Of a stretch of 41,659 nt of DNA, positions 22,082-41,659 are shown one piece after another. Source of the stretch: a virus. The stretch is from the IMG/VR virus record IMGVR_UViG_3300032144_000026, positions 1 through 41,659 of that record. One strand, given 5' to 3'. The notes beneath the pieces are model-generated. The model was not told the origin of the DNA. It did not search any database and was given only the letters and a program-made list of their open reading frames with translations. Numbering within the stretch: the first letter of the stretch is position 1; every line of letters begins with the position of its first letter. Made by a program: the position numbers and the translations under genes.

Positions 22082-22464
22082 GGCAGCAGACCCAGGCCGA
22101 TGGTGCCGAAGTTGCCGTTCGCTACGGAACCGCTCAGGCCGCCACCACCGTATACGGACCCGCCTACGGCAGAGCCCAGGGAGCCAGTGTTCGCGTTACC
22201 GCCAGACAGCGAGAAGCTGTTCTGGGTAGCGGCGACGCCGTTGGGGGCTACGACCACTTGGGCCTCGCCACCGCTGACGGTTTGTGCGGCGCTGTTAGTG
22301 CCGACCAGACCGTTGCCAATGGAGGCGCTGCCCCCTTGGACGCCAGCGCTGGACAGGGAACCGCTACCGACTTGACCAGTGCCCCCGAACAGGTTGATGC
22401 TTGCTGCTTGGGCGCCTGCGGACAGGGTCAGGGCAACAGCAGCAGCGATAAGTGCTTTTTTCAT
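22078..22464 (-). CDS. Secreted Gly/Ser/Asn/Gln/Ala-rich protein (128 aa)
   Basis: Signal peptide MKKALIAAAVALTLSAGAQA|AS. The mature part has no Lys, Arg, Asp or His and a single Glu. AGGAG RBS. Confidence 0.75.
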   Translation of the reverse strand: MKKALIAAAVALTLSAGAQAASINLFGGTGQVGSGSLSSAGVQGGSASIGNGLVGTNSAAQTVSGGEAQVVVAPNGVAATQNSFSLSGGNANTGSLGSAVGGSVYGGGGLSGSVANGNFGTIGLGLLP

Positions 22465-22560
22465 TGGTGTAACTCCTAGCTAGGATTTAGGCCCCCGGCA
22501 GAATTGCCATTGGGGGACGCTTAACTGGTTGTACCAGTTGTACCGCTTGGGTACGGGGCC

Positions 22561-22590
22561 ATTATTGCGCACCTGTACCCGTCATTACAA
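22561..22590 (-). promoter_or_regulatory. Weak candidate promoter TTGTAA-N18-AATAAT
   Basis: The reverse complement of 22561..22590 gives this arrangement. It lies about 100 nt upstream of the secreted-protein gene. Confidence 0.25.
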
Positions 22591-22597
22591 CAACTAT

Positions 22598-22771
22598 TTA
22601 ACTCCCATTTACAAAAATTGCTACCATGAAGAGCAGAATCAAACTGATGAGCAGAGTGGTGAGCGTGGTGATCTTACCGCGGAGTTGTTGATTCTCGTAC
22701 TGCAGATCAGCCTTGTCACGCTCGGCCTTTCGGTACGCAAGTTGGAATCGCACATTTTCATTGTTATCCAT
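22598..22771 (-). CDS. 57-aa tail-anchored membrane protein (coiled coil plus C-terminal TM)
   Basis: MDNNENVRFQLAYRKAERDKADLQYENQQLRGKITTLTTLLISLILLFMVAIFVNGS. GGAGAG lies 5 nt upstream of the ATG at 22771. Same architecture and length as 21001..21174. Confidence 0.55.
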   Translation of the reverse strand: MDNNENVRFQLAYRKAERDKADLQYENQQLRGKITTLTTLLISLILLFMVAIFVNGS

Positions 22772-22831
22772 AGCTACTCTCCAGTGTGCCGGGGGTGGCA
22801 CCTATATAGTACCACCGCTGGCACTCTATTG

Positions 22832-23140
22832 CTACAGGGGGTTGTTGCGGATATGCTCTTCTACCAGAAGCAGGTAGCAGCGGAGATCACGTATGTCATC
22901 AATGATCCCTTCCTCATCAATCTTGCCCCCCTCAGAGCAGGCGGCGCCAAAGATGTTGAAGCCGTGTCCCGAGCACTGAGACTCAATGCGGTCCCATTTG
23001 CGGGCCAGCATCATGAAGGCTCCCACGCCCCCACGGCGGCGCCAGCTAGAGCCATACTCTGCATTCTTGATGATCAGGGTGGCGATGTCGTCGCTGGCGA
23101 TCCTGCGCACGCGGTCGTAGTCAGTTTCAACGTAGTTCAT
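22832..23140 (-). CDS. DUF1599/MazG-like all-alpha nucleotide-modification-associated protein
   Basis: KNAEYGSSWRRRGGVGAFMMLARKWDRIE matches my recollection of the DUF1599 pattern (K..dYG.sw...G..g....l..K..R). An ATGA overlap joins it to the HD gene. Confidence 0.55.
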   Translation of the reverse strand: MNYVETDYDRVRRIASDDIATLIIKNAEYGSSWRRRGGVGAFMMLARKWDRIESQCSGHGFNIFGAACSEGGKIDEEGIIDDIRDLRCYLLLVEEHIRNNPL

Positions 23141-23658
23141 TTCAAGTACCTCGAACGGAAGTCGGCAATTACGCACTCGGCCTCAAGCCGGTACAGGGGG
23201 TCATGCTCAATCAGGTTCTGGATATACCCGATGTAGCGCTCCCCCACGGGGATGATGTGGTGGTTCCCCATCTTCAACTCGTCCGTGCATTTCAGCAGGC
23301 CATCCAGGTTGTCTGCCAAATGGAGGAGGTGAAGCTCGGTTTCATCGATATTGGCATGGAGGTTGGGGTGGATGCGCTCGACAGCTTCGCATTCCCTCCG
23401 GTCAATCTCGATGCTTACTTGCACGGGCAGCGCCTTCTTGATCTGGCTTGGGATGTCCCCCACTGCAATCTCGCCCATGTCGTGGGTAAGCGCTGCCAGG
23501 ATCAGGTTGCGGCTGGCCTTGCCGTCTGTAAGGACCAAGATCAGGTTGACCACGTTGAAGCTATGCTCCGCCACGGTCTCCTCCTTGATGGTCCTGACGG
23601 CATGGAACCGCTTAACGATCCCAGCTTCGCGTGCTTGCTTGATGTTATTGAGAAGCAT
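23137..23658 (-). CDS. HD-domain (YfbR/DatZ-like) deoxynucleotide phosphohydrolase
   Basis: RFH...ETVAEHSFNVVNLILVL...ALTHDMGEIAVGDIPSQIKK carries the H, HD and D metal ligands. The start was refined to the ATG at 23658, which overlaps the ThyA-like stop by 14 nt. Confidence 0.7.
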   Translation of the reverse strand: MLLNNIKQAREAGIVKRFHAVRTIKEETVAEHSFNVVNLILVLTDGKASRNLILAALTHDMGEIAVGDIPSQIKKALPVQVSIEIDRRECEAVERIHPNLHANIDETELHLLHLADNLDGLLKCTDELKMGNHHIIPVGERYIGYIQNLIEHDPLYRLEAECVIADFRSRYLK

Positions 23659-24613
23659 GTCTTTTCTCCACTGCTCTAGTGATCCAATCCATCGACGCCT
23701 TTCTCCAATCGTCCGCCTCAATGCACGACGCAAGATGTAGCGCTTCATCGCTATCCCCCTGCTTGTAGGCGTGCCACGACTGGACTAGGGGGGCGACAGT
23801 ACCGTCAAAGAATGGCTCGGCGAAATAGTCCACCTTGCCGTTGCACAGATCAATACAATCTTGGTCAAACGCCTTGTAGTCCTGGACCAAGGGCTGAGGT
23901 TTGGGATACGGCGACCATTCCCAGCTACCAGAGAACTTGCCCTCTAACAGCGGAAAGTGTCTCTCGTAGACATGCAGGTTGTTGGTCAGTTGATACCAGA
24001 AGCCGACCTTCACCCCCAGACGCGCCGCCATGTACTCTTGCAGGATGCTCATATGGACAGCGTTTGCGCCGCATAGACCAAATACTAGATCATTGCTACG
24101 ATTGGTGATGGTGAAGTCCAGCTTACCTTCCACGATCCGGCACATGATGCTAGTGTTGCACGGGTAGTCTAGCCCAGTGCCCCCTAGGTCATTGTAGCCG
24201 TCCCACATTGACAGCACACTGCGCCGGTCCAGGGGGTTCCTTCCAAGGATCTCGCACACGGTGCTGATCTGGTCGTACCCGAAGTGCTGGCGCCAGCGGT
24301 GACCGTAGGCGGCGTTGAATGTAAGACCATCGTCGCTGTAGGTCATCATGTTCTGATTGAACTGCCGGACGAATGCTGTGTCGTTGCGCCCCGCCAGCAT
24401 CCACAAGGCCTCTACCAAGTGGAAGAATGGATTGGCGTTGCGATCCTTGTCAAACAGCACCCTCTCTACTGGGTTACGGAACTCAACGAAGACGGGGGCT
24501 GGCAGTGCCAGAGCCAGACCATTGCGCGTCTCCACCCCTTGTCCAAAGGTCCGGACCATCGGCATAAGCCGATGGTATGCGGATTGGACGTTTCGCGTGC
24601 TGACGTTATACAC
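23645..24613 (-). CDS. Thymidylate synthase-family enzyme; candidate dUMP hydroxymethylase
   Basis: ThyA-like blocks: AYHRLM..V...G, NPFFHLVEALWMLAGRND, LDYPCNTS (Cys nucleophile) and NRSNDLVFGLCGANAVH (aligns with QRS.D..LG.PFNIASY, Asn retained). GTG start. Confidence 0.75.
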   Translation of the reverse strand: MYNVSTRNVQSAYHRLMPMVRTFGQGVETRNGLALALPAPVFVEFRNPVERVLFDKDRNANPFFHLVEALWMLAGRNDTAFVRQFNQNMMTYSDDGLTFNAAYGHRWRQHFGYDQISTVCEILGRNPLDRRSVLSMWDGYNDLGGTGLDYPCNTSIMCRIVEGKLDFTITNRSNDLVFGLCGANAVHMSILQEYMAARLGVKVGFWYQLTNNLHVYERHFPLLEGKFSGSWEWSPYPKPQPLVQDYKAFDQDCIDLCNGKVDYFAEPFFDGTVAPLVQSWHAYKQGDSDEALHLASCIEADDWRKASMDWITRAVEKRHASQ

Positions 24614-25412
24614 GTTCGTAGATCCTCCGACGACCTGGGCCGTCTGTCACGTAGCGCATGAACTTCTGGAACTCGCAGAGGCAGTTCTGTAGGTCCTGCA
24701 TCTCCAGTTCAGGGATGTAGCCCTTGGTGACCCGCTTCAGGTGGCTCAGCCTGTCGTAGAAGGTTGTCTCCGTGGTGCCGGGTCCGTAGAGGATGTCCAG
24801 CCCCTTCTTACTCCCAGGCCCCATAACCGCGAAATCATTCCAGTCGGGGGCGTAGTGGAGGAACTGGTCATGCTTCAGGTCAGCAATGATCTGCCCGCAC
24901 ATGAAGCTGCCCAGCCCGTCAATCTTGCGGAGACAGTCGAACGCCTCCCTGCAAGAGTGGTTGCTGATATACGCCTTGGCCACCTGCTTGATCAAGTCAT
25001 CGCAGTACTCGATCTTGTCCATTGACTTGCCGCAAGTGCTGACAACGTAGGCCGTGTGGAAGACCTTGCCCCCACTGTCCAGGCGGCACTGGAGATACTC
25101 TGGGCCGAACTTGAAGTAGTCCTCTACACTGGGGGCGAAGTTGAAGAGCCGCGCTGCCGTGTAGAACATGGGCCGCTTGTGCATCGCGAGGTCCATCTTG
25201 ATGCGCAGTTCCCGGAGCTCCTTGGTGCCCCGGTCGTCCTCGCGGCGGATGTTGCAGAAGTGATATCGTTGGAGGATTTTATCATCCGTCCACGGGGGCG
25301 GATCCCCCAACTCCCGCGCCAGCCTGATACTGTTACGTTCATTCACCCAGTAGATAAACCGCTCTAGCTTTCCTGCATTAACGTTCATCATCTTCACCTT
25401 TGAAGAAACCAT
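24606..25412 (-). CDS. aGPT-Pplase-like (alpha-glutamyl/putrescinyl thymine pyrophosphorylase family) DNA base hypermodification protein; the start may be the ATG at 25388
   Basis: N-terminal LERFIYWVNERNSIRL...PPPWTDDKILQRYHFCNIRREDDRGT and C-terminal DLQNCLCEFQKFMRY match the family pattern as I remember it. The gene overlaps both neighbours. Confidence 0.6.
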   Translation of the reverse strand: MVSSKVKMMNVNAGKLERFIYWVNERNSIRLARELGDPPPWTDDKILQRYHFCNIRREDDRGTKELRELRIKMDLAMHKRPMFYTAARLFNFAPSVEDYFKFGPEYLQCRLDSGGKVFHTAYVVSTCGKSMDKIEYCDDLIKQVAKAYISNHSCREAFDCLRKIDGLGSFMCGQIIADLKHDQFLHYAPDWNDFAVMGPGSKKGLDILYGPGTTETTFYDRLSHLKRVTKGYIPELEMQDLQNCLCEFQKFMRYVTDGPGRRRIYERV

Positions 25413-26646
25413 AGTGGGCGTCGTCTGACGCTTGCTCTACTTCTGGTGTCGTGACTCCGTGTTGCTGTGACTTACCTCGTGCTAGGTCTAGCACCTGCAT
25501 CGCCACCCACTTACGATCAAACATGGGTAGCAATTCTATGGCATTACTCATTATACGCCGGTAGCTGCCATAATTCAAATTGCACGCTTCTGAGAGCGCG
25601 TAGCCGTATTCCACGGCGCTATAGTGCTGTGGTATGGCGTAGCAGTTCTCCCCCGCCACAAACAGTTCCCCACGGCCTTCTACGTTGGTGCTTATGCCTA
25701 GGGGGCGCACCACCGGCAGCGCACCCTGGATAATGGCATCAACAATTACCCGGTTGAAGTGCCCCCCAATCTGGGAGTATTTCTTGCTCCATGATGGGTC
25801 TACTAAGCAGGTCATGTTCCGGAGAATGGTGTCCCGCTCATCATTGGTCAGGACGCCAAGGTAGTCCATCCCGGTGCGGAGTGCCCGGTCCCACACTCCA
25901 GGCCACTTGTTCTTGTCTGGGCTGGTCAGGTAGTAATAGTCAATGCCCTTTCCGGCGAGTGCCTTTACCACTCCTTCCCTTACGTGGGGCATCGCGGCCA
26001 CGAGCTCTGGTACGTGCTTCCACGCTTTGAAGGTTTGCAGGCTTAGGAAGCCCCTGCGCCTCTTGCTCCAGGCGGTCCAGGATATGTCCGGCGCCTTCTC
26101 CGGCAGATGTTGTGGATTTGGGATAAAGGAACTCGGTACGGAGATATAAGCAGCGGAGTTGAATGCACAGTGATGTACGCAGATAAGGCCAGTCAGGAAA
26201 TGTTGCACGTCGCACAGCCAAGGGTAGGATGCCAAGAAGTTCCCATCGTGGATCACCGCGAGTTGCGTCACGCCAGTCTGATAAAGGATTTCCCAATCTG
26301 TGTTCCCCCGGTTCTCTTTGCGCTTGGTGGGGACAGCGACCTGCCAAATCACTATGTCAAACTGCCGGATCACGGCCATTGCAGTTGTGAGCGCGCGCCC
26401 CCGGTACGGGATGCACTTGTCGTATGGCCAGCTATACCCGCGCCGCTGGTCGTACTCTAGGCCGGTGTAGGGGGATGTCGTGCCGCGCCCCCCGGCCATC
26501 CCGTTGCGGGGGCGATCTTCACGTGGCAGGAAGCAGAGGGTGGTGACTTCATGACCAAGCTCTTGAAGCCCGGCGCAAAGCTGCTCGTTATGATTTAGAA
26601 TTCCACCAACGTCATCCAGTGGATACCATGCAAGTAGGATCTTCAT
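25378..26646 (-). CDS. GT-B fold (GT4-like) glycosyltransferase; alternative GTG start at 26703
   Basis: MKILLAWYPLDDVGGILNHNEQLCAGLQELGHEV is a classic GT4 N-terminus. The C-terminal GGHFNRVIVDAIIQGALPVV resembles the E/D-x7-E donor-binding region. Confidence 0.7.
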   Translation of the reverse strand: MKILLAWYPLDDVGGILNHNEQLCAGLQELGHEVTTLCFLPREDRPRNGMAGGRGTTSPYTGLEYDQRRGYSWPYDKCIPYRGRALTTAMAVIRQFDIVIWQVAVPTKRKENRGNTDWEILYQTGVTQLAVIHDGNFLASYPWLCDVQHFLTGLICVHHCAFNSAAYISVPSSFIPNPQHLPEKAPDISWTAWSKRRRGFLSLQTFKAWKHVPELVAAMPHVREGVVKALAGKGIDYYYLTSPDKNKWPGVWDRALRTGMDYLGVLTNDERDTILRNMTCLVDPSWSKKYSQIGGHFNRVIVDAIIQGALPVVRPLGISTNVEGRGELFVAGENCYAIPQHYSAVEYGYALSEACNLNYGSYRRIMSNAIELLPMFDRKWVAMQVLDLARGKSQQHGVTTPEVEQASDDAHYGFFKGEDDER

Positions 26647-26676
26647 CTTATTGTCCCATGATTTGGGTGGAAGCCA

Positions 26677-26705
26677 ATAGTATTCGCATTTCTCAGACTC
26701 CACAA
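26677..26705 (-). promoter_or_regulatory. Candidate promoter TTGTGG-N17-TACTAT for the modification operon
   Basis: The reverse complement reads ttgtgg agtctgagaaatgcgaa tactat. It lies between the upstream terminator and the ATG at 26646. Confidence 0.4.
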
Positions 26706-26709
26706 GATC

Positions 26710-26735
26710 AAAACCCCGACTAGTGCCGGGGTTTT
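26710..26735. terminator. Bidirectional terminator closing the 184-aa gene unit
   Basis: aaaaccccg actagtgc cggggtttt: a 9-bp stem including the A-run and T-run, 15 nt after the stop of 26751..27305. Confidence 0.75.
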
Positions 26736-26750
26736 GCGCAGCGAGGGGGG

Positions 26751-27305
26751 TTATTCAACTTCAACAACCCCGGCCTTGGTGACGTACCAGACCAGGAAGG
26801 TATGGGCGACTGCTTTGCCCCCGTTGGCCTCGTAGAACTGGTCAACGGTCATGCCGTCCTTGATGCTTGCGAAAATCTTGCCGCGCTTAGACTCAGCTTG
26901 GTACGTGGTCTTGAGTCCAGCATCGGTAAGACGAAGAGTCTGCGAGCCCAGGAAGACATTTGTGACCCGTGGGATTGGGTTGCCTTCTGCATCCAAGCGC
27001 GGTGCTCGAACTTTCTTGACCGGGATAGGTTGTCCAGCCTCGTCCAGAACATTGTTGCCGTCCTCGTCCTTGACGTACTCTACGACCTTCGCAGGCTTAG
27101 GCCGCTTCATCTTGGTTTCACCCTGGACTTGTAGGCCCTCTTCGTCAAGCAGAGGCGAACCGTCTTCATTCCACTGGGGATAAAGCTTGGGTTCTTTGGG
27201 GGCGGTGGTCCGTGGTTTGCGTTCTTTCTTCTGTGGCACTACTGGGGTCTCGGCTGCTTGGGCTTCTTGTTCGAGACCGGCTTCATAATCAGTCATTTTA
27301 GGCAT
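26751..27305 (-). CDS. Lys/Pro/Glu-rich protein with three (D/E)xxG.P(I/L) repeats; monocistronic unit
   Basis: NEDGSPLLDEEG, DEDGNNVLDEAGQPIPV and LDAEGNPIPRV repeats. It is flanked by its own candidate promoter and a terminator. Confidence 0.8.
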   Translation of the reverse strand: MPKMTDYEAGLEQEAQAAETPVVPQKKERKPRTTAPKEPKLYPQWNEDGSPLLDEEGLQVQGETKMKRPKPAKVVEYVKDEDGNNVLDEAGQPIPVKKVRAPRLDAEGNPIPRVTNVFLGSQTLRLTDAGLKTTYQAESKRGKIFASIKDGMTVDQFYEANGGKAVAHTFLVWYVTKAGVVEVE

Positions 27306-27350
27306 CTCTGTGGTGGGAATTTAGTAGCCCGCCTTTTGGACGGTAGTGCT

Positions 27351-27380
27351 ACTATACCATAGTTGGACCATCCGGTACAA
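27351..27380 (-). promoter_or_regulatory. Candidate promoter TTGTAC-N18-TATAGT
   Basis: The reverse complement reads ttgtac cggatggtccaactatgg tatagt, in the 80-nt gap between the SNF2 gene and the 184-aa gene. Confidence 0.5.
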
Positions 27381-27385
27381 CCATT

Positions 27386-28852
27386 TTATTCCTCCTGGCT
27401 TAGGTTAATTCGTAATAAGGCCAGGAATTCAGCTTCGCTTAGGGCCTTAGACAAGCAGGACATCCGGAGAGCCCTCTCAACCCCACAATCCATCATGATG
27501 CGGTACACCGTGACAGCGTCAGCCTTGCTGCCATGCCGGGCGACGCGCAGGTTGGCCTGATAGGTACGCTCCCAGCTTGGGTCGCCCCCAAACCAAATGA
27601 TGTTGGAGCAGTTGTTCTGCAGCCCGTCAATGCCAAGTGCCACGGACTGGGGATGCCCCAGCATCAGGGGGATATGACCTGCGCTGAACATCTTGCAGTG
27701 CGCTACTCCAGCAGCGACGCTAACGCCTCCGCCAATTCTTGGAACATCGTAGCCAAGCCGCTTGTTGATTCGCTCGAAGTCGTGGCGGTAGGCGTAGAGG
27801 CAGAAGGCCGGCTCACCGTCGAGCTCGGTGACGATGTTTTCAAGGGCGTCGAGCTTGGCCTCATGGATTTCAATCCAGGAGTCGTCACCACGCTCGGTGT
27901 CGATGATGGCGCCTTGGGCAAACTGACGAAGCTTGCCCCATAGGACACCTGAGTTGGGGGCCATGACAACGCTATCGCCAAGAACAAGCAGGAACTCTTT
28001 CTTGAGCTCATTGTATTTCTCCCTAAGGTGCGGAGGCATTGGGACCCAAACGGGGACTTCCATGATCGGCATATCATCGTCACCCTCGGAGACGATGGTT
28101 GTGGGGGCGATCTTAGCGGCCACGCGAGCGGCAGCCCCCGGTAGCTCCTCGTATCCGTAGCCGCTTTCGTCCGGCCGCATGTACTGGAACCGGAAGTGGG
28201 TAATGAAACTGCCAAGGTCTTTCCCCAGGTCGGTGATGTAGCATTGGAAGAACAGGTTCTCCAGCTTGCCGGGGCGCGGAGTCCCTGTCATTACGACCCG
28301 ACGGTTGGTGTACGGGAGATAACAGGCCAAGGACTTGGCACGCAGGCTGTTGGAGTCCTTGAAGCCGGTGGACTCGTCGCATACCAGCATGACCCGCTTG
28401 CCCTCAAACCACGCAATGGCATAGGGATTCCCTTTGTACTTCTTGCGCTTAGAGCCGGGATTGGTGCAAATGGGGCCGAACTCCGTACCGATAAGCCCCT
28501 CGTAGTTCATAAGGTAGACGTCAACCTTAGACTCCAGTGCCGCCTTGCGCGCCTTCTCACCGCCATGGACAATGGCATAGGTCAGGTGGGCAAAGTCGTC
28601 CCAGTAGTTGATCTGGTGCGGCCACGAGGTGGTGATCACCCGTAGGGGGGCGATCACCAGCATGCAGTCAACGAGATCTCTTTTCTTCAGGATGTCGTAC
28701 ACCTTCAGAGCTACCGCCGTCTTCCCCCGGCCCGGTTTCAAAAAGAGACGAAAGCCTGGTTCCGTAACGCCCAGCTTCATGCTCTTTAGCTGTAGGGGCC
28801 GTGGCTCGAATCTTGGCTTGGACGTCTCTAAAGGCAATGTCTGAATCGTCAT
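27386..28852 (-). CDS. SNF2/RAD54-family (SF2) helicase
   Basis: Q-motif RPLQ, motif I LKPGRGKTAV, motif II MLVCDESTGFK, and C-terminal QANLRVARHGS (motif VI-like). Confidence 0.85.
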   Translation of the reverse strand: MTIQTLPLETSKPRFEPRPLQLKSMKLGVTEPGFRLFLKPGRGKTAVALKVYDILKKRDLVDCMLVIAPLRVITTSWPHQINYWDDFAHLTYAIVHGGEKARKAALESKVDVYLMNYEGLIGTEFGPICTNPGSKRKKYKGNPYAIAWFEGKRVMLVCDESTGFKDSNSLRAKSLACYLPYTNRRVVMTGTPRPGKLENLFFQCYITDLGKDLGSFITHFRFQYMRPDESGYGYEELPGAAARVAAKIAPTTIVSEGDDDMPIMEVPVWVPMPPHLREKYNELKKEFLLVLGDSVVMAPNSGVLWGKLRQFAQGAIIDTERGDDSWIEIHEAKLDALENIVTELDGEPAFCLYAYRHDFERINKRLGYDVPRIGGGVSVAAGVAHCKMFSAGHIPLMLGHPQSVALGIDGLQNNCSNIIWFGGDPSWERTYQANLRVARHGSKADAVTVYRIMMDCGVERALRMSCLSKALSEAEFLALLRINLSQEE

Positions 28853-29114: not shown

Positions 29115-29754
29115 GGCAATGTCCTCCCTTGCGCCAAGACAATGGGCACCACTGACAAGAGTTGTGGCTTGGAGTGGGGGCGTATGTCTCTTCGTGGTTG
29201 ATGATCTCGATAGTATTGATCAGCTTTACGGTCTCTATCTGCTTTGCCCCTCTGGCATAAGCAGACGGCACCGTGTGCAACGGAATGTCCAAGTAAACGA
29301 ACTCCGTTTCGTAGGCATCCCAGTCGTCTGGTTCTAGGGCCATGTACATGCGACCCTGCTTGGGATGGTCGGGATACACCTTCCCAGACTTCCAGTCTAG
29401 GATATGGCGCACCCCATCTACAGTGTAGCGCAGGTCCACCTTTCCCTTAGCGTAGGCATCAGGGTCGTCATACGCGCATGGCAGCCAGTGACTGTTAACG
29501 GCGATCTCCGCCTCAGGCTCTGGGCTGTACTTGGTCAGATTCTCCATGAATCGCTGCCAAGGGCGGAGCACTTTGTCGCCGTGGGGGAATGCCCCCTTAC
29601 CAAGGAAGAACTCCTCCAGCTTGAAATGGAGCTCGGTGCCGCGCAGGGCGGCAGGCTTGTCAGGCTCACGGTTGCCCAGGACGTATACGTGCTTCCACCA
29701 GAGGGGGCACTTCTCGTACAGGCTGATGCTACTGTAGCTCTGGCACCTTTTCAT
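29101..29754 (-). CDS. PD-(D/E)XK Cas4/RecB-like exonuclease with a Cys cluster
   Basis: There is an N-terminal Cys (YEKCPLWW) and a C-terminal SCQWCPLSWRKGGHC. The core is DLRYTV...ILDWKSGK. The start was refined to the ATG at 29754, an ATGA overlap with the polymerase gene. Confidence 0.75.
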   Translation of the reverse strand: MKRCQSYSSISLYEKCPLWWKHVYVLGNREPDKPAALRGTELHFKLEEFFLGKGAFPHGDKVLRPWQRFMENLTKYSPEPEAEIAVNSHWLPCAYDDPDAYAKGKVDLRYTVDGVRHILDWKSGKVYPDHPKQGRMYMALEPDDWDAYETEFVYLDIPLHTVPSAYARGAKQIETVKLINTIEIINHEETYAPTPSHNSCQWCPLSWRKGGHCRAAP

Positions 29755-31514
29755 TTGGCTGCCTCTGCCCAAGTCTCGCCGATGCCCATAGTCAGGCGCA
29801 TTGGTACGTCGCACGGCAGGGCGTTAGCGGCCTCTACCATAATGCGGCAGATCTCATCCTTGTCGCGCAGCGGGGCGCACAGGTTGATCTCGTCATGCAC
29901 CGTGCCCAGCAGGCGGAAATACCGGGTCACCGACCCAAGGTTCTCCTCTGCGTAGATAATGGCTTCCTTGGTCTGGTCGGCCGACGAACCCTGCACCAGC
30001 AGGTTGAGGGCCTTATAGTCCCAGTTGCGCCCGTTGCTGGGGGGCTCACAATAGCAGAACCGACCCCCCATAGTTTTGATGGGCAGGCCAAGCTGGAACC
30101 GACGCTTGCAATCCCTGTCCAGACGCACAACATCCGGCAAATGCGCTTTGATGGCGTTACGCAGTCCATTAGCGCGTTCGTACGTGCAACCTAGCTTTTC
30201 CGCCAGCAGGGCTGCCCCCATTGCGTACAGTATGCCCAGGAATATGACCTTACTGTCCTTACGGGTTACGTCGCCGCCCACAAGCTCCATAATGAAGATA
30301 TAGGGGTCCATGTCAGGGTCGTCAATAAACGCCTGCATCAGCACGCCATCTTCAAAGTGTGCCGCTACCCGTGGTTCTTGGGCCTTAAAGTCAAAGCTGT
30401 ACCAGACACAGCCCTCGTCCGGCAGGCAGTAGGCCCTCATATTGGGGAAGTGGTCCCCAAAGTAATCCAAGCCCTGTTCATCAGGAATGTTCTGGCCGTT
30501 GGGGGCAGAACTACTCAGGCGCCCGGTGCGCGTGCCGTAGCCATCCTCGTTGCGCACCTGATTGTACTGCGGGTTGATGGTGCCCCCGTTGGCCTCGGCG
30601 TATGCCAGCCACGGTCCCATGAAGGTGCCGGTCAGGGTGGCGTAGGTGGCCCGCGACTTCAGCATAGTCTTGAGTTCCTTGTCCGTTTCCAGGACGCGCT
30701 CAAGGCTTTCCTTGTTGGCAGACAGCCTGCCCGTCGGGGTAAGCAGGAATCCGCTGTACCCGGCCTTCTGCAGCGCCCCCACAAGGTCACGGTCGCTGCC
30801 GGGGTTCAGGTGCGGGCTGTGCAAGCGTTCACGGATCATGTCGTCCAGCTTGTACAACTTGTCCAGCGCCGTGTGGTAGTCGTGGCGCAGGCGCTGTACG
30901 TCAATGCGGATACCCTTGCTCTTAATCTTGGCAAGGATGGGCGCCAGTGTGCGCTCACGGTCATACGGGGGCTGCATCTCCGCCATCTTCTCGAAGCAGT
31001 AGTCATGCAGCCGCTGCGCCATCTCGGTATCGGATTCGGCATACTTGCCGACCAAGCCCCCCGGTGCCCGGCATATATAGGCGCCGCATTGCTTACGACT
31101 ACGGCACTCGGGGACATTGGCCAGGATCCAGTCGTACAGTTCCTGTTGGTCGTCAGGCGGCATACCGAGCCAGTTGGCCGCTAGGTCCTTAAGCCTGAGG
31201 CTGGGGGTGTTCGGGTCAATGAGGTAGGCTTCAAACATTGTGTCGTGGGTTAGAAGGGGGTCGCGCTCTGGCATTCCGAACCAGTACATTGCGACTTCCA
31301 GATCAAACCCGAAGATGTTATGCCCAACGAGCTCCATGTCCCATACACGCTCAAGTTCACGGGCAAACTCTTCCTTAGTACAGTTGTTCTCCGTTGGATG
31401 ACCCCATGCCCAGTAATGGTTAACCCCATTATCACGAATAGAGCAGCCCACAGGCCGCGGAGGAGTTGGGCTTCCATCGACAATGGCCTCTGTTTCAAAG
31501 TCAAGCGAAATCAT
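29751..31514 (-). CDS. Family A DNA polymerase with a 3'-5' exonuclease domain
   Basis: ExoI SLDFETEA and ExoII HNIFGFDLEV. The other motifs are RLSSSAPNGQNIP, motif A DFKAQEPRVAAH, motif B RKDSKVIFLGILYAMG and motif C GTVHDEI. Confidence 0.9.
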   Translation of the reverse strand: MISLDFETEAIVDGSPTPPRPVGCSIRDNGVNHYWAWGHPTENNCTKEEFARELERVWDMELVGHNIFGFDLEVAMYWFGMPERDPLLTHDTMFEAYLIDPNTPSLRLKDLAANWLGMPPDDQQELYDWILANVPECRSRKQCGAYICRAPGGLVGKYAESDTEMAQRLHDYCFEKMAEMQPPYDRERTLAPILAKIKSKGIRIDVQRLRHDYHTALDKLYKLDDMIRERLHSPHLNPGSDRDLVGALQKAGYSGFLLTPTGRLSANKESLERVLETDKELKTMLKSRATYATLTGTFMGPWLAYAEANGGTINPQYNQVRNEDGYGTRTGRLSSSAPNGQNIPDEQGLDYFGDHFPNMRAYCLPDEGCVWYSFDFKAQEPRVAAHFEDGVLMQAFIDDPDMDPYIFIMELVGGDVTRKDSKVIFLGILYAMGAALLAEKLGCTYERANGLRNAIKAHLPDVVRLDRDCKRRFQLGLPIKTMGGRFCYCEPPSNGRNWDYKALNLLVQGSSADQTKEAIIYAEENLGSVTRYFRLLGTVHDEINLCAPLRDKDEICRIMVEAANALPCDVPMRLTMGIGETWAEAAK

Positions 31515-32490: not shown

Positions 32491-33090
32491 TTAGTCGGCA
32501 ATGGCCGCAAGGATGAGGTCTGCGGTGGTAGCGAAGGCTTCCGCCTCTTCTACAGTTTTAACATCGACGATGTCAAACTTCGCCCCCTTGAGGTCATCGT
32601 CCAGGGACTTCAGATACGCGGTGGCATCTTTGTCGCTGCCGACTTGGACGAACAGGATGGTAAGGTCTTCGTCCTTTTCCATGGCCTGAGTGGCGTTGAT
32701 GATGACTTGGGCGGCAGCCGCCTTGTCATCTGGGACGCCATCGGTGAGGACCAGGATGAAGTCCTTTTTGTCGCTACGACCAGCTTGCTCCAGGCTGGCG
32801 GTGAGCGCCTCTGCAAGCGGGGTAGAGCCGCGTGGTGAACGGGTGGCGAACACATCCTTGACCTTATCGGCGGTTACGCCGGTATAGCCGCTGACGTTGG
32901 CGCCGCTGAAGAACAGGACGTCAATGCCGTCGCTGTCCAGTTGTTGCAGATCACGCGCAAATGCAGTGATGGTTTCCTGGGCATAGTCCCAACGGGATTT
33001 GCCCCCACGGCAGTCTTGCTCGCCCATGCTGCCCGATGCGTCGATGGCAACAATGAAGTCATACTCGGACAACGAAGATTTGTCAACCAT
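32491..33090 (-). CDS. von Willebrand factor A (vWA, TerY-like) domain protein
   Basis: MIDAS motif DASGSM, plus a downstream Thr and LVLTDGVPDD. 199 aa. Confidence 0.8.
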   Translation of the reverse strand: MVDKSSLSEYDFIVAIDASGSMGEQDCRGGKSRWDYAQETITAFARDLQQLDSDGIDVLFFSGANVSGYTGVTADKVKDVFATRSPRGSTPLAEALTASLEQAGRSDKKDFILVLTDGVPDDKAAAAQVIINATQAMEKDEDLTILFVQVGSDKDATAYLKSLDDDLKGAKFDIVDVKTVEEAEAFATTADLILAAIAD

Positions 33091-33186: not shown

Positions 33187-33840
33187 TTATTTTTGCATCA
33201 TCCAAAAGACCAGCAGCGTGCGCACTCCATGACGAACCTCGGCACCACGATGGTGAACATGGCGTCCGTTGAAGAAGAGTGCGTGTCCCTTAGGCAATGC
33301 CTCCACGAACACGGTCTCCCCCGCTGGCCCATAGGGGCGAAGATACGTCCCCCCTCCAGTGTGGTGCTCGGGGCCGAGGCTAACGACGCAGGTAAGGTCG
33401 CTTTGCTCGTCTACGTGCCAATCGCTTTTTGCGGTGGCACTCGGTTTGTAGCGCGCCAGCTGAATAGAGCTAACCCGTCCAGGGGTATGACCAGTCATCA
33501 TCTGGAACAGAGGCTCAATACGCTCCTCCATGATACGCATAAGCTCTACAAACGTGCCCTTATCGTGGTACGCCAGCACCAACTCTTCCACTTGATACGC
33601 CCTTTCCTCCTCTTGGTTCACTTGGAACTGGTCCTTGAAGAACTCGGCATAGCTGATCAGTGTTTCGCACTCCTGCTCGTCCAGCACGGGGGCGCTGAAG
33701 ATCATAGGACCATGCTTCTTGATGGGGATATCATCCAGACTATGCAGCTTCCAGATGAGGGGGGCCTTCTCGTAGCCCTTCTCGTTGCAGTCCATGATCG
33801 CGCACTTCATGCGTCCTGCGTACATTTGCAGCGGGTTCAC
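33187..33840 (-). CDS. 2OG-Fe(II) oxygenase, prolyl-4-hydroxylase-like
   Basis: HxD in WHVDEQSD, a distal His and Arg in HVHHRGAEVRHGVRTLLVFW. GTGA coupling to the upstream gene. Confidence 0.75.
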   Translation of the reverse strand: MNPLQMYAGRMKCAIMDCNEKGYEKAPLIWKLHSLDDIPIKKHGPMIFSAPVLDEQECETLISYAEFFKDQFQVNQEEERAYQVEELVLAYHDKGTFVELMRIMEERIEPLFQMMTGHTPGRVSSIQLARYKPSATAKSDWHVDEQSDLTCVVSLGPEHHTGGGTYLRPYGPAGETVFVEALPKGHALFFNGRHVHHRGAEVRHGVRTLLVFWMMQK

Positions 33841-39538: not shown

Positions 39539-41551
39539 ATGGATGACTACCCGTTTGAAGTTAGCACGGTCAAAGGCTCCCCTGTAGACTGGTACAAAGA
39601 ACGTATGCGCATGAGCGGGATTACCGAAGAGGTGGCTCGCAAGTGTGGTCTGCGTCTCCGAGTGCCAGAAGAGGGGGTTATCCACATCGAAATCCCGTAC
39701 TACGACCGACATGGGGTCCAAACAACCCTCATCCGTCGGCGCAACATTGTGGCGGTACACGAACACGGCCCCTCGCAATCAGGCGGCGACTTCAAAGGCA
39801 AGTATTCGCAGCCGAAAGGATCCAAAAACCTTCTCTACTGGCCTCCCTTGGCTGATCAAAACCGTGAATACAAGGACACACTCTGCCCCCTTATCGTCTG
39901 CGAGGGGGAACTCAAAGCCATCTGCTGTAAGATGCGCATCCTAGCGCAAGGTGATGAGCACCGCGCCCTCGTTGTTGGCGTCCCAGGCACCAGCGGCCTG
40001 AAAGCAGTGATGCAAGACTTGCGCAACATCAATATGTACGGCCCCAACGATACCCGCCGTGACGTATTCCTTGCCATGGACTGGAATGCGACCGGCAAAA
40101 GCAAGGAAGACAGCGCCAAACTCGAGTTCCAACTCCGTAAGCTGTTCGAGGAAGAGGGCGCCAAGGTCGTCATACTGCGCTGGCCGATCCCAGAGGGCCA
40201 GGAAAAGGTAGAGCAGAAGCTCGACAACTGGCTCGTTGGCGGGGGCGACATCGGTGCTGCGCTCCGTGCCAGCTATGAAGCTCGTATGGAGATAGATTCA
40301 GTATACCAACAGTGCTGGGACTATCTAAATACTCGGTATGCGATCAAAGATGGCAAGTACATCCCCCTCTCCGACCCCTCCAAGCTCTACACACTCGGCG
40401 AGCTTAACACAATGGAGAACGATATCCGCATCGAGTATGCGAAGAACAAATATCGTCATGCCCACGAGGTCTGGTCCTGGCAACCGAAGGAAGACCGCAA
40501 CGAAGTTGATGGCTACATCTTCCTCCCCGCACCCTTGGGAGTCGACCCCGAGCGCTATGTACATGAAAATGGCCGTCGCCTACTCAACACCGCGCCCGAA
40601 GCTCACTGGCACAGTCCTCCATGGGGCAGCGACGAGCCCCCAGAGGTCGGCCCGTTTGTCGCCCACATACAACGTCTGTGCCAAGAGCATACGCCTTGGT
40701 TCCTAGACTTCCTCGCCCACTGCGCCCAGCGTCCTGCAGAGAGGGGCAACCACATTATCGTGTTCAAAGACCAAGGTGGGACAGGTAAGAGCCGCTTGTT
40801 CGAGATTCTGGACCTCGTATTCGGCGAGTATTCCGGCCCCATCGGCAGCGCGTTAACGTCCAACTTCAATTCGCAGATAGAAAAGCTCGTAATCGCATGG
40901 TGGAGCGACCCTGTAACCAAAGGCGGCGCCGATAGGGACCTCGAAAGTGCCCTCAAAAACTTCAGCGGCGACACCAAGCTCAGCATCAACCACAAATACG
41001 GCGCCGAGTACACGGTCACTGGGTATGGTCGTCTGATGATTGCGACCAACAAGTGGCTCGTCCCTGTGGACAGCAAGGAAAGGCGCTACACCGTCTTCGG
41101 CGGATTCAGCCCCCTGGATCACCACGAAGCCCGCGCACTCATGGATTGGGCCAATGCCGGGGGCGTAGAGCAGATCCGCTTGTTCTTAACAGAAAGAGAC
41201 ATATCTCAGTTCGATGTCTACGCGCCCGGCCCTCGGACCATCCAACGCGAGGAAATGGAGCGCGACTCCGCGCACCCCCTCCGCAAGATGCTGGAGTTCG
41301 AAGCCTTTGCGGATTGCGATATCTGGTCCACAGACCAAATCACAACCTTCTACAACGATAATCACAGTCGCCGCCTCAGCCCCGATGCTATTGGCGCGCT
41401 GCTGAAACAGGAAGGCTGCATTAAGAAGCCTGTCACTGTGGACGGCAAGACCGTTAGGTTGAATGCTATCAGGAATACAGAAAAGTGGGACAATGCGCCC
41501 CCCAAAGAATGGGCTGAGGAGTACAAACGTGGTCGGGATGCTAAGTTCTAA
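39539..41551 (+). CDS. Primase/helicase: TOPRIM-like N-terminal half plus a D5/P4-type SF3 NTPase
   Basis: LIVCEGELKA and VFLAMDWNATG are TOPRIM-like acidic motifs. Walker A is KDQGGTGKS and the Walker B-like motif is LVIAWWSD. The last 19 nt lie in the 127-nt overlap. Confidence 0.8.
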   Translation: MDDYPFEVSTVKGSPVDWYKERMRMSGITEEVARKCGLRLRVPEEGVIHIEIPYYDRHGVQTTLIRRRNIVAVHEHGPSQSGGDFKGKYSQPKGSKNLLYWPPLADQNREYKDTLCPLIVCEGELKAICCKMRILAQGDEHRALVVGVPGTSGLKAVMQDLRNINMYGPNDTRRDVFLAMDWNATGKSKEDSAKLEFQLRKLFEEEGAKVVILRWPIPEGQEKVEQKLDNWLVGGGDIGAALRASYEARMEIDSVYQQCWDYLNTRYAIKDGKYIPLSDPSKLYTLGELNTMENDIRIEYAKNKYRHAHEVWSWQPKEDRNEVDGYIFLPAPLGVDPERYVHENGRRLLNTAPEAHWHSPPWGSDEPPEVGPFVAHIQRLCQEHTPWFLDFLAHCAQRPAERGNHIIVFKDQGGTGKSRLFEILDLVFGEYSGPIGSALTSNFNSQIEKLVIAWWSDPVTKGGADRDLESALKNFSGDTKLSINHKYGAEYTVTGYGRLMIATNKWLVPVDSKERRYTVFGGFSPLDHHEARALMDWANAGGVEQIRLFLTERDISQFDVYAPGPRTIQREEMERDSAHPLRKMLEFEAFADCDIWSTDQITTFYNDNHSRRLSPDAIGALLKQEGCIKKPVTVDGKTVRLNAIRNTEKWDNAPPKEWAEEYKRGRDAKF

Positions 41552-41659
41552 GTCGTGCAAGTGTAATGGTGAAATGGGTGTGTGTAATGCTGGGAACCCC
41601 GTACTAGGCACTTCGCACGGGTGGAATTACACTATTACACTTAAACTTAAAAAATATTG
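41533..41659. repeat. Window-end overlap, copy 2 (identical to 1..127)
   Basis: Same 127-nt string as the window start. Confidence 0.97.

Follow-up and report, generated by a model that had tools for sequence, protein, structure and literature searches.

A glycosyltransferase in the kinase slot of a predicted phage thymidine-hypermodification cassette: a candidate 5-hydroxymethyluracil-DNA glycosyltransferase

Introduction

Phage DNA hypermodifications govern the evasion of restriction, CRISPR and other nucleases, and they are also a source of enzymes for base labelling and mapping. The addition of sugars to 5-hydroxymethylcytosine (5hmC) is textbook knowledge from T4, and the addition of amino acids and polyamines to 5-hydroxymethyluracil (hmU) is now well worked out. 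To our knowledge, a sugar placed directly on hmU is known only from eukaryotic base J. Here we describe a predicted glycosyltransferase (GT) gene from a viral genome, IMG/VR record IMGVR_UViG_3300032144_000026 (positions 1 to 41,659; this whole 41,659-nt stretch is called the window below), and the cassette of overlapping genes that it heads. An earlier note on this DNA had read the gene product as a GT4-like enzyme that is co-translated with an aGPT-Pplase-like protein and possibly glycosylates hmU in phage DNA. From context and homology we put at about two in three (0.66) the probability that the GT is a phage DNA glycosyltransferase that transfers a sugar, after replication, to the 5-CH2OH group of hmU in the phage's own DNA.

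Associations between GTs and pyrimidine-modifying enzymes in phages have been noticed before. Surveys report that phage thymine dioxygenases of the 'ParB-independent' kind co-occur with GTs (PMC13229309), and that GT-B matches associate with thymidylate synthase (ThyS; about 28%) more than with 5mYOX (Pyle et al., 10.1101/2023.12.21.572611). At the level of annotation, the 'partner AMGs' (auxiliary metabolic genes) of HTVC023P-type pelagiphages comprise thymidylate synthase (TS), aG/PT-PPlase1, 5'-deoxynucleotidase and a putative glucosyltransferase (PMC9599517). We found no published demonstration of glycosyl-hmU in a phage, and recent surveys predict it; the earlier note took such a route to be not well characterised in phages, and the association itself is partly on record (PMC9599517; 10.1101/2023.12.21.572611). 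The parts, GT-B DNA glycosyltransferases and the hmU hypermodification cassette, are individually known, and a GT-headed PF18723 cassette with neither kinase nor transferase is an uncharacterised combination that has been glimpsed before.

A glycosyltransferase gene in the kinase slot

The GT gene heads a block of five minus-strand genes that overlap, in order, by 14, 8, 14 and 4 nt (Table 1). It is followed by genes for a PF18723 protein, a ThyA homolog, an HD-domain protein and a small protein homologous to gp53 of PaMx11 and gp54 of Pam3. The order in PaMx11 is gp49 (P-loop kinase), gp50 (PF18723), gp51 (ThyA homolog), gp52 (HD) and gp53; that in Pam3 is gp49 (kinase), gp50 (PF18723), Nmad5, ThyA, 5'-deoxynucleotidase (gp53) and gp54. 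The last four window genes are syntenic with PaMx11 gp50-53 and, judged by this synteny, the GT occupies the slot of the PaMx11 P-loop 5-hydroxymethyl-2'-deoxyuridine (5-hmdU) DNA kinase. The window thus brings together a dUMP hydroxymethylase-type gene, PF18723 and an HD nucleotidase, the combination that marks a thymidine-hypermodification cluster.

The two enzymes that complete such clusters elsewhere were searched for in the window and in the 84 GT loci described below, using phmmer with two kinases and two transferases as queries, together with a two-sequence hidden Markov model (HMM) for the kinase and a small HMM for the transferase. At an expectation value (E) <=10, the window and all 84 loci yielded neither the P-loop 5-hmdU DNA kinase (PF18748) nor the amino-acid/diamine:DNA transferase (ADDT; PF18724, old Pplase2). 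No kinase or PF18724 came up when every sizeable open reading frame (ORF) of the window was scanned against Pfam, and no Walker A motif was present among the unassigned window ORFs.

The GT reading frame lies on the minus strand at the coordinates given in the earlier note, and the strings quoted there are present: the translation opens with MKILLAWYPLDDVGGILNHNEQLCAGLQELGHEV and includes GGHFNRVIVDAIIQGALPVV. An alternative GTG-initiated ORF extends to 26703. In alignments every GT homolog begins at M1 of the 422-aa form, a length shared by the public gene call. At its 3' end the GT gene runs into the PF18723 gene (minus strand, ...GGTGAAGATGATGAACGTTAATGC), so that the GT stop TAA (25378-25380) is embedded in the next gene (...AAAGGTGAAGATGATGAACGTTAATGC), 14 nt from ATG 25391 or 11 nt from ATG 25388, and a Shine-Dalgarno-like AGGTGA motif lies just upstream of the overlap. 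This overlap geometry suggests translational coupling of the two genes. The earlier note had placed the GT stop correctly inside the start region of its neighbor; its statement that the two are co-translated goes a step beyond what the geometry indicates.

Downstream, the GTG start of the ThyA gene overlaps the PF18723 gene stop by 8 nt (GTGTATAA). The HD ORF extends to 23748, and ATG 23658 is its likelier start, giving a 14-nt overlap with the ThyA stop. The small last gene is conserved in nearly all GT loci; its product matches no Pfam, PHROG or NCBIfam family, is linked to PaMx11 gp53 and Pam3 gp54 by phmmer across loci, and shares with them the motif YGSSW+RRGGVGAFMML. Pam3 gp54 is annotated 'nucleotide modification'. 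We also considered whether the HD protein or the small protein (in its 114-aa ORF form) is the dTTPase/dUTPase gp18 of SH-Ab 15599, and rejected this for lack of similarity.

Two substrate-supply contexts across phage lineages

To place the window GT among its relatives, 80 IMG/VR loci and several others were mapped with homologs of window, PaMx11 and Pam3 proteins, which yielded 84 GT loci including the window. A ThyA homolog was present in 67 of these, within 1.7 kb or less of the GT in 65. PF18723, HD and the small protein accompany ThyA nearly always, and where PF18723 is absent the flank is usually too short. The GT joins the cassette in at least five gene orders (Table 1) and at least three phage lineages, with either PolA or DnaE as replicase, and this variety of orders and replicases is a stronger argument for functional linkage than the counts are.

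A further 10 of the 84 loci carry a Tet_JBP dioxygenase and no ThyA homolog, with the GT 0-404 nt downstream of the dioxygenase (L039-41, L058-62, L080, L084). The replication modules around these TET/JBP-GT pairs are T4-like and include genes for clamp, clamp loader and DnaB. The flanks yielded no C5-methyltransferase in a crude motif screen that had been validated on M.HhaI, which fits the reported association between phage thymine dioxygenases and GTs (PMC13229309). Taken together, the GT is linked to a hydroxymethylase or to TET/JBP in 77 of 84 loci. By gene content, then, the GT appears to travel with either known route to a 5-hydroxymethylpyrimidine in DNA; no other single argument for its substrate class is as strong.

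Some of these loci hold further genes of note. Directly 3' of the TET/JBP-GT pair, L039 and L041 encode a GmrSD_N-like protein (a type IV restriction family; sub-threshold Pfam match), which may be a phage nuclease that discriminates modified from unmodified DNA. L058 carries further GTs, one GT17-like and one Anp1-like. In L034 and L056 the GT adjoins radical-SAM/B12-binding genes; L056 also has a DnaE-type polymerase fused to uracil-DNA glycosylase (UDG), and L034 an IS605 OrfB/TnpB-like gene. By analogy, these two contexts recall the sugar-bearing thymidines of SP-15, YerA41 and Carin-5 type (PMC12686479) and polymerase-UDG fusions.

Fold and conserved residues of the GT

No Pfam model reached its gathering score on the window GT. 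The only match was an N-terminal, sub-threshold Glyco_transf_4 hit (E 1.7e-4; 22.1 bits against a cut-off of 28.5), and no PHROG or NCBIfam family matched. Across 50 family members, Glycos_transf_1 (PF00534) was detected in 23 at E<=0.01 (best E 5.5e-10) and Glyco_transf_4 in 11. On these profile scores the family is peripheral to GT4. Searches of the GT sequence and family profile against the PDB gave marginal GT4/GT5 matches only (PimA, glycogen synthase).

Structure prediction was more informative. An AlphaFold2 model built on a 50-sequence alignment has the canonical two-Rossmann GT-B fold with an inter-domain cleft (predicted local distance difference test, pLDDT, 95.1; predicted template modelling score, pTM, 0.92), in agreement with the GT-B reading of the earlier note. 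Foldseek returned 301 PDB matches at E<=1e-3 with GT4/GT5 enzymes on top, and the closest solved structures are the retaining GT4/GT5 enzymes HepE, PimA, BshA, GlgM and glycogen synthase (E 1e-12 to 1e-11). T4 alpha-glucosyltransferase (AGT) bound to HMU-DNA matches the model at E 5e-10, with a TM score of about 0.6. The matches to predicted viral structures are headed by an unnamed phage protein (E 2e-32, TM 0.84), followed by a glycosyltransferase of Bacillus phage SP-15, a phage in which a thymine derivative in DNA is glycosylated (PMC5977210, PMC12686479). On fold and sequence comparison, the window enzyme is best described as a divergent GT4-like GT-B enzyme outside both classical phage DNA-GT families.

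Residues conserved in the family include an N-terminal G14-G15-x-x-N-H loop (the GT4-type GGxxNH), H133-D134, Q204, K207 and K210. K210 is invariant and aligns with K202 of PimA, the diphosphate-binding Lys. The donor-binding block named in the earlier note reads as a divergent EX7E region, G294-x-H296-F-N298-R299-V-x-V-[D/E]303, in which H296, N298 and R299 are invariant. Position 295, where EX7E has its first Glu, is G, D or A, and position 303 is acidic in 50 of 50 members (43 D, 7 E).

The PF18723 partner and its fusion to the GT

The product of the gene downstream of the GT matches PF18723 with E 1.2e-33 and 117 bits against a cut-off of 25, residues 17-254 covering profile positions 5-274 of 281. 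Pfam now names PF18723, once 'aGPT-Pplase clade 1', as 'HMUDK_hel, 5-hmdU DNA kinase helical domain'; PF18724 is the characterised amino-acid/diamine:DNA transferase (former clade 2), and PF18748 is the P-loop kinase. The partner, also numbered as a 268-aa protein, matches the first of these three alone. It is thus a member of the aGPT-Pplase family, as first described, and belongs to clade 1 rather than to the catalytic transferases of clade 2. It is 25-31% identical to its counterparts in PaMx11 (gp50), Pam3 (gp50), SH-Ab 15599 and hundreds of ViI-/M6-like phages. We found no function assigned to PF18723 in the hypermodification-pathway literature (PMC8989533, PMC13458397, PMC11472151).

The AlphaFold2 model of the partner is all-helical (pLDDT 92.9). 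Its fold search returned nothing at E<=1e-3, and its sequence matched nothing in the PDB. The fold matches that did appear are weak, with PaMx11 gp46/PUGT the best (E 0.34), followed by helix-hairpin-helix (HhH) glycosylases; MutY, AlkA, AGOG and RuvA are among the matches (E 0.3-3). The family has an invariant Q-N-C-L-C-E-F-x-K motif in which, by eye, QNCLCEF resembles E243-T244-I-L-C247-K-W of PaMx11 gp46/PUGT. In PUGT, C247 has been proposed as nucleophile, and a metal bound by E243/T244 keeps O4 of the flipped base in place (PMC11472151). An hhalign comparison of the PF18723 family with PaMx11 gp46 gave a probability of 0.1 and no support for homology.

In one lineage the GT and PF18723 are a single polypeptide. 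The 829-aa protein P0200 is a natural fusion of a GT (8-423), a Lys/Glu-rich linker and PF18723 (512-799, including LIDLQNCFCETDKY). Identical P0200 sequences occur on two independent assemblies (ENA, Logan). The fusion gene is followed directly by a ThyA homolog and preceded by genes for a HAD-type phosphatase and a small nucleotidyltransferase. With P0200 as query, no other GT-PF18723 fusion was seen among the matches listed, which were limited to 8000 candidates owing to the low-complexity linker.

These observations invite a bolder, rather doubtful proposal, namely that PF18723 is a reusable module that reads or flips hmU in DNA, serving the P-loop kinase in PaMx11-type phages and a GT-B enzyme here, and that the genome would carry glycosyl-hmU, possibly heptosyl-hmU, made by a two-component enzyme with no counterpart in T4 or base J. 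In a more radical variant the sugar would be merely a leaving group for chemistry mediated by the PF18723 cysteine. As a full alternative to glycosylation, this variant makes the GT an activating enzyme: it would attach a sugar or sugar-phosphate, the PF18723 Cys would attack C6 and install thymine, an amine or another nucleophile, and virion DNA would contain little or no sugar. Such a role would suit the kinase position of the GT in an otherwise syntenic block, the likeness of the invariant QNCLCEF to the nucleophile motif of PUGT, itself the best, weak fold match, and the existence of the fusion. We nevertheless consider it unlikely. A glycoside is a poorer leaving group than a phosphate, homology between PF18723 and clade 2 has no statistical support (hhalign 0.1; Foldseek E 0.34), the TET-linked GT relatives have no PF18723 gene, and the extra GTs at some loci (L058) suggest glycan extension and hence a final product that bears sugar.

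The ThyA homolog and the choice of base

Whether glycosylation would fall on a uracil- or a cytosine-derived base depends on the ThyA homolog. In phage ThyA proteins (E. coli numbering), an acidic residue at L143 is diagnostic of a hydroxymethylase, D169N of a 5-hydroxy-dCMP synthase and N177D of dCMP use (PMC13326640). In the window enzyme, which retains the catalytic Cys, D-Y-P-C places Asp at the L143 position, R-S-N-D preserves D169, and G-L-C-G-A-N has an Asn and no Asp. The uracil-reading Asn noted earlier is therefore present, as part of a dUMP signature, but stands one residue later than E. coli N177; PaMx11 gp51 and the SH-Ab 15599 enzyme share this one-residue insertion. The window protein is 47% identical to PaMx11 gp51 and 30% identical to the SH-Ab 15599 dUMP hydroxymethylase, which has been used experimentally to make hmU-DNA (PMC13458397). 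All 68 GT-linked ThyA homologs carry the hydroxymethylase and dUMP signature. Assignment of the window ThyA homolog as a dUMP hydroxymethylase is well supported by sequence, from which its activity is predicted.

A cytosine substrate has precedent on its side. All proven ThyA-using phage DNA-GT systems act on cytosine derivatives, as in T4 gp42 with AGT and beta-glucosyltransferase (BGT) and in the arabinosyl-5-hydroxycytosine (5hoC) of RB69/DLP3 (PMC13326640), and 5hmC is the substrate of those phage GT-B enzymes that have been characterised (10.1101/2023.12.21.572611). The ThyA homolog would then make 5-hydroxymethyl-dCMP, as in T4, or 5-hydroxy-dCMP, as in RB69/DLP3, and the GT would glycosylate that base. 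We think this very unlikely, and both cytosine and 5-hydroxycytosine substrates were rejected on the ThyA signature residues: D169, which is Asn in 5hoC synthases, is kept in the window and in 68 of 68 GT-linked homologs, and the loop residue corresponding to N177 is Asn, never Asp. In addition, the two enzymes that the window ThyA resembles come from thymine-modifying phages, the flanking PF18723 and HD 5'-deoxynucleotidase are hallmarks of thymidine-hypermodification clusters, and no dCTPase was found.

Restriction of the GT family to phages

An exhaustive HMMER search of 1.84 billion representative proteins placed 228 clusters (50% identity) in the GT family at E<=1e-3. A word-indexed search gave 359 GT homologs, typically on ~41-kb contigs, with a second group on contigs of ~60-66 kb. 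A further lineage occurs on contigs of 55-96 kb. Among 185,579 species-representative bacterial and archaeal genomes there was a single relative, which lies on a phage-like 11.9-kb contig in a Flavobacteriaceae metagenome-assembled genome and has the same cassette. The family is thus essentially phage-specific on these searches. Deposited phages were searched as well, by megablast of 22800-27400 and by tblastn of the GT and a TET-linked relative (thresholds relied on, E<=1e-5 and 1e-3); none of 50,697 GenBank phage records gave a match, so no cultured phage anchors the GT. One relative, P0140 (623 aa), continues from the GT domain into a ~200-aa Lys/Arg/Ala/Glu-rich tail and a small C-terminal domain. 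The tail is possibly DNA-binding; a relationship to the 184-aa protein encoded upstream of the window GT was rejected, as the two show no similarity.

This distribution bears on a rival reading, in which the GT is a moron or accessory gene acting on host lipopolysaccharide (LPS), teichoic acid, a small molecule or a virion protein, with incidental neighbors; the earlier note had itself named an envelope or LPS enzyme as an alternative. The top solved-structure matches are indeed cell-envelope and small-molecule GT4 enzymes, some homologs are annotated by Joint Genome Institute (JGI) pipelines as 'glycosyltransferase involved in cell wall biosynthesis', and the protein is near neutral in charge. 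An LPS or O-antigen role was nonetheless rejected on phage restriction and linkage, and we regard any target other than DNA as very improbable. The family is virtually absent from cellular genomes, and its closest homologs do not sit in O-antigen or cell-wall clusters, the check that the earlier note had proposed (one phage-like relative in the whole genome set). The GT gene overlaps that for PF18723, and one lineage has the two fused; the hydroxymethylase or TET/JBP linkage holds in 77 of 84 loci across gene orders and lineages; and the gene lies in the replication module rather than in the lysis or structural modules. Every comparative test run favored an hmU-DNA glycosyltransferase, as originally suggested, over an envelope enzyme, which makes a role on DNA the better-supported prediction.

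Proposed pathway

We propose that the ThyA homolog, identified by homology and signature residues, would convert dUMP to hmdUMP. The HD 5'-deoxynucleotidase, judged by family assignment, and perhaps the small protein too, would bias the nucleotide pool against dTTP by removing dTMP. Host kinases and the phage PolA would then insert hmU in place of T, by analogy with PaMx11, M6, ViI and SH-Ab 15599. The GT would glycosylate hmU in the polymer from a nucleotide-sugar, as suggested by its context, its fold, the two independent substrate-supply contexts and the fusion. An alpha linkage is the default guess, because the close structural relatives are all retaining enzymes. PF18723 may find or flip hmU as the partner of the GT, to judge from its adjacency to the kinase elsewhere, the overlap and fusion described above and its weak HhH-like fold. 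The GT would thereby replace the kinase as the enzyme that derivatises the 5-CH2OH group, and the expected benefit is virion DNA shielded from host nucleases.

The possibility that the GT acts before replication on hmdUMP, hmdUDP or hmdUTP, with the polymerase incorporating the sugar-bearing nucleotide, would suit the other mononucleotide-level enzymes of the cassette (ThyA, HD) and the absence of obvious positive charge on the GT, but is extremely unlikely given that known phage hydroxymethylpyrimidine glycosylations are all post-replicative (T4; Pyle et al., 10.1101/2023.12.21.572611), that TET/JBP enzymes oxidise bases in the polymer, so that the TET/JBP-linked GT relatives can act only on DNA (PMC13229309), that PF18723 has relatives with DNA-glycosylase-like folds and that the window PolA is an ordinary family-A enzyme.

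Several observations weigh against glycosylation of hmU by the GT as set out here. The fold of the GT is equally close to cell-envelope GT4 enzymes and to T4 AGT. Sequence comparison adds no link to either T4 enzyme: hhalign against the GT family gave a probability of 1.3% for AGT (GT72), leaving fold-level similarity only, and 0.1% for BGT (GT63). The structural comparison called for by the earlier note gave matches to T4 AGT and to GT4 enzymes, with BGT missing from the 50 best fold matches. With a pI of about 6.9 the GT is not basic. The first Glu of EX7E is not conserved, so catalysis or donor may be unconventional. The window encodes no sugar-activation or sugar-nucleotide genes. PF18723 has an invariant Cys and may itself be catalytic, not an adaptor; the TET-linked GT members have no PF18723 partner, which indicates that the GT is not strictly dependent on it. 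The fusion comes from a single lineage, whose nearest relatives (64% identity) are unfused, though the same genes are neighbors there. Finally, the counts overstate independence, since near-duplicates of the same phage types make up many of the 84 loci.

Sugar donor

With no sugar-activation genes in the window, a host donor pool (UDP-hexose, UDP-N-acetylhexosamine (UDP-HexNAc) or ADP-heptose) would be used. Some GT relatives are better equipped. Immediately before the GT, L080, L090, L092 and the contig of P0388 encode a 136-150-aa protein that matches RfaE domain II, the heptose-1-phosphate adenylyltransferase, best (E 1e-24, short of the trusted cut-off) and TagD next; in L090 a HAD-IIIA phosphatase-like protein precedes the RfaE-domain-II-like gene. 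This suggests ADP-heptose-like donors in the phages that bear such a gene. The RfaE-like neighbors parallel the heptose and Kdo adducts that GT-B enzymes place on 5hmC (Pyle et al., 10.1101/2023.12.21.572611).

Genomic context

The window represents a complete phage genome: the opening 127 nt (1-127) recur exactly at 41533-41659, leaving 41,532 unique bases, and this exact end repeat shows that the contig is a closed genome, circular or terminally redundant. Its GC content is 56%. The modules are listed in Table 1; the GT gene lies in the replication module, outside the lysis and structural modules.

By portal and PolA comparison, even the closest cultured relatives are remote: the portal shares 49% identity with its counterpart in Stenotrophomonas phage BUCT555, and PolA ~34% with PolA of Stenotrophomonas phage AXL3 and Pseudoxanthomonas phage PW916, which hints at a Xanthomonadales-like host. 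Inside the replication module, the window encodes a von Willebrand factor A-domain protein that is unusual for a small podophage. A 2-oxoglutarate (2OG)-Fe(II) oxygenase (PF13640, phrog_61) is prolyl-hydroxylase-like, not Tet_JBP; L011-L021 and L067 have weak homologs of it (E about 1e-5) at a distance of 7-8 kb from the GT.

Immediately upstream of the GT is the gene for a 184-aa Lys/Glu/Pro-rich protein that matches no family in Pfam, PHROG or NCBIfam; its membership of the cassette is uncertain. A stable hairpin at 26710-26735 (CCCCGG-loop-CGGGG then TTTT) separates this gene from the GT. The terminator scan did not call the hairpin, and a promoter/terminator scan of 22400-27500 found nothing above chance.

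Table 1. Features of the window and of related GT loci. Positions are window coordinates unless a locus is named.
Feature	Position or locus	Strand	Details
GT-B fold glycosyltransferase; predicted 5-hydroxymethyluracil-DNA glycosyltransferase	25378..26646	-	ATG start, 422 aa
GT / PF18723 gene overlap	25378..25391	-	ATGATGAACGTTAA, 14 nt; 11 nt if second ATG used
PF18723 'HMUDK_hel' protein (formerly aGPT-Pplase clade 1), 261 aa	24606..25391	-	Public gene call, start MMNVNAGK
ThyA-family enzyme, 322 aa, predicted dUMP hydroxymethylase	23645..24613	-	Pfam Thymidylat_synt E 2.7e-21; phrog_5131 E 1.9e-100
HD-domain YfbR-like 5'-deoxynucleotidase	23137..23658	-	Pfam YfbR-like E 1.2e-16; NCBIfam 5'-deoxynucleotidase E 8e-10, below cut-off
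Small conserved protein, 102 aa	22832..23140	-	ATG overlaps HD stop as ATGA; ORF extends to 23176
Lys/Glu/Pro-rich protein, 184 aa	26751-27305	-	Immediately upstream of GT (phmmer, L004-L009); ~41-kb podophage group only
Structural module		+	P22-type portal, SU10-type adaptor, tail fibre with S74 chaperone
Replication module		-	PolA, SNF2 helicase, VRR-NUC, PD-(D/E)XK; DUF5906-type protein on plus strand
Portal	4058-6085	+
PolA	29751-31514	-
Von Willebrand factor A-domain protein	32491-33090	-	199 aa
2OG-Fe(II) oxygenase	33187-33840	-	217 aa
Order GT-PF18723-ThyA	~41-kb podophages
Order PF18723-GT-ThyA	Pam3-like ~64-kb contigs
Order small protein-GT-ThyA	L011-L021
Order PF18723-GT-ThyA-small protein, HD distant	L042, L064
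GT 5.5 kb from remaining cassette	L068, L078
Order nucleotidyltransferase-GT-x-PF18723-x-ThyA-HD	55-96-kb contigs with DnaE-type polymerase
Donor-type genes beside GT	L090 481-1933; L080 9594-10004; L092 4539-6004		RfaE-domain-II-like (HAD in L090)
GmrSD_N-like protein, 3' of TET/JBP-GT	L039 4319-5698; L041 8212-9645
GT adjoining radical-SAM/B12-binding genes	L034 11326-13484; L056 6716-14784
Small last gene of the cassette, other loci	L085 7509-7949; L086 9082-9522

Relation to known systems

The cassette is a concrete, compact and widespread candidate for phage glycosyl-hmU, with five overlapping genes on one 3.8-kb fragment and relatives in at least three lineages. It also offers a handle on HMUDK_hel, which is here separated from its kinase and paired, even fused, with a different transferase. 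If the proposed activity is correct, an hmU-specific DNA glycosyltransferase would be a reagent for hmU mapping, as T4 BGT is for 5hmC.

T4 AGT and BGT (GT72, GT63) share the GT-B fold with the window enzyme, and in T4 as in the window a ThyA-family hydroxymethylase gene adjoins a DNA GT (T4 b-gt abuts gene 42, the gene for gp42). Post-replicative glycosylation of a 5-hydroxymethylpyrimidine, as in T4, is predicted for the window phage. Unlike T4, there is no detectable sequence relationship between the GTs, the base is predicted to be uracil-derived, and T4 has no PF18723-type partner. Base J, made in kinetoplastids by JBP1/2 and JGT, belongs to the glycosyl-hmU class of product predicted here, and a subset of the GT family follows a TET/JBP dioxygenase. 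JGT is a GT-A-like inverting enzyme that makes a beta-glucoside, whereas the window enzyme is GT-B with retaining-type relatives; its hmU would be made before replication via ThyA, so that all T positions are potential sites.

GT53, GT66 and GT94 of Pyle et al. (419-429 aa) resemble the window GT in size, GT-B fold, BshA/MshA-type structural neighbors and TET/5mYOX neighborhood; unlike the predicted window substrate, theirs is 5hmC, formed via a methyltransferase (MT) and TET, in a comparison made by description only. HTVC023P-type pelagiphages are, like the window phage, ~40-kb podophages with the same gene set near PolA (PMC9599517). By analogy theirs is probably the same cassette, the GTs being compared by annotation only; the published record gives no family definition or function and no analysis of the missing kinase and ADDT. 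SP-15, YerA41 and Carin-5 also carry sugar on a thymine-derived base, and the SP-15 GT is the second viral structural match of the window enzyme. Unlike the window phage, they are large myoviruses with different gene sets, in which the sugar sits on a (di)hydroxypentyl linker with phosphate (PMC12686479).

The closest systems are the thymidine-hypermodification clusters of PaMx11/M6, Salmonella ViI, Pseudanabaena Pam3 and Acinetobacter SH-Ab 15599, which combine a dUMP hydroxymethylase, the 5-hmdU DNA kinase (5-HMUDK), ADDT/Pplase2 and PF18723. The window shares with them a homologous four-gene block (PF18723, ThyA-type hydroxymethylase, HD nucleotidase and small protein) and, on our proposal, the logic of pre-replicative hmU followed by post-replicative derivatisation of the 5-CH2OH group. 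Unlike these clusters, it is without PF18748 and PF18724 and has a GT-B enzyme in the kinase slot, and the expected product would be an O-glycoside in place of their amino-acid or polyamine adducts.

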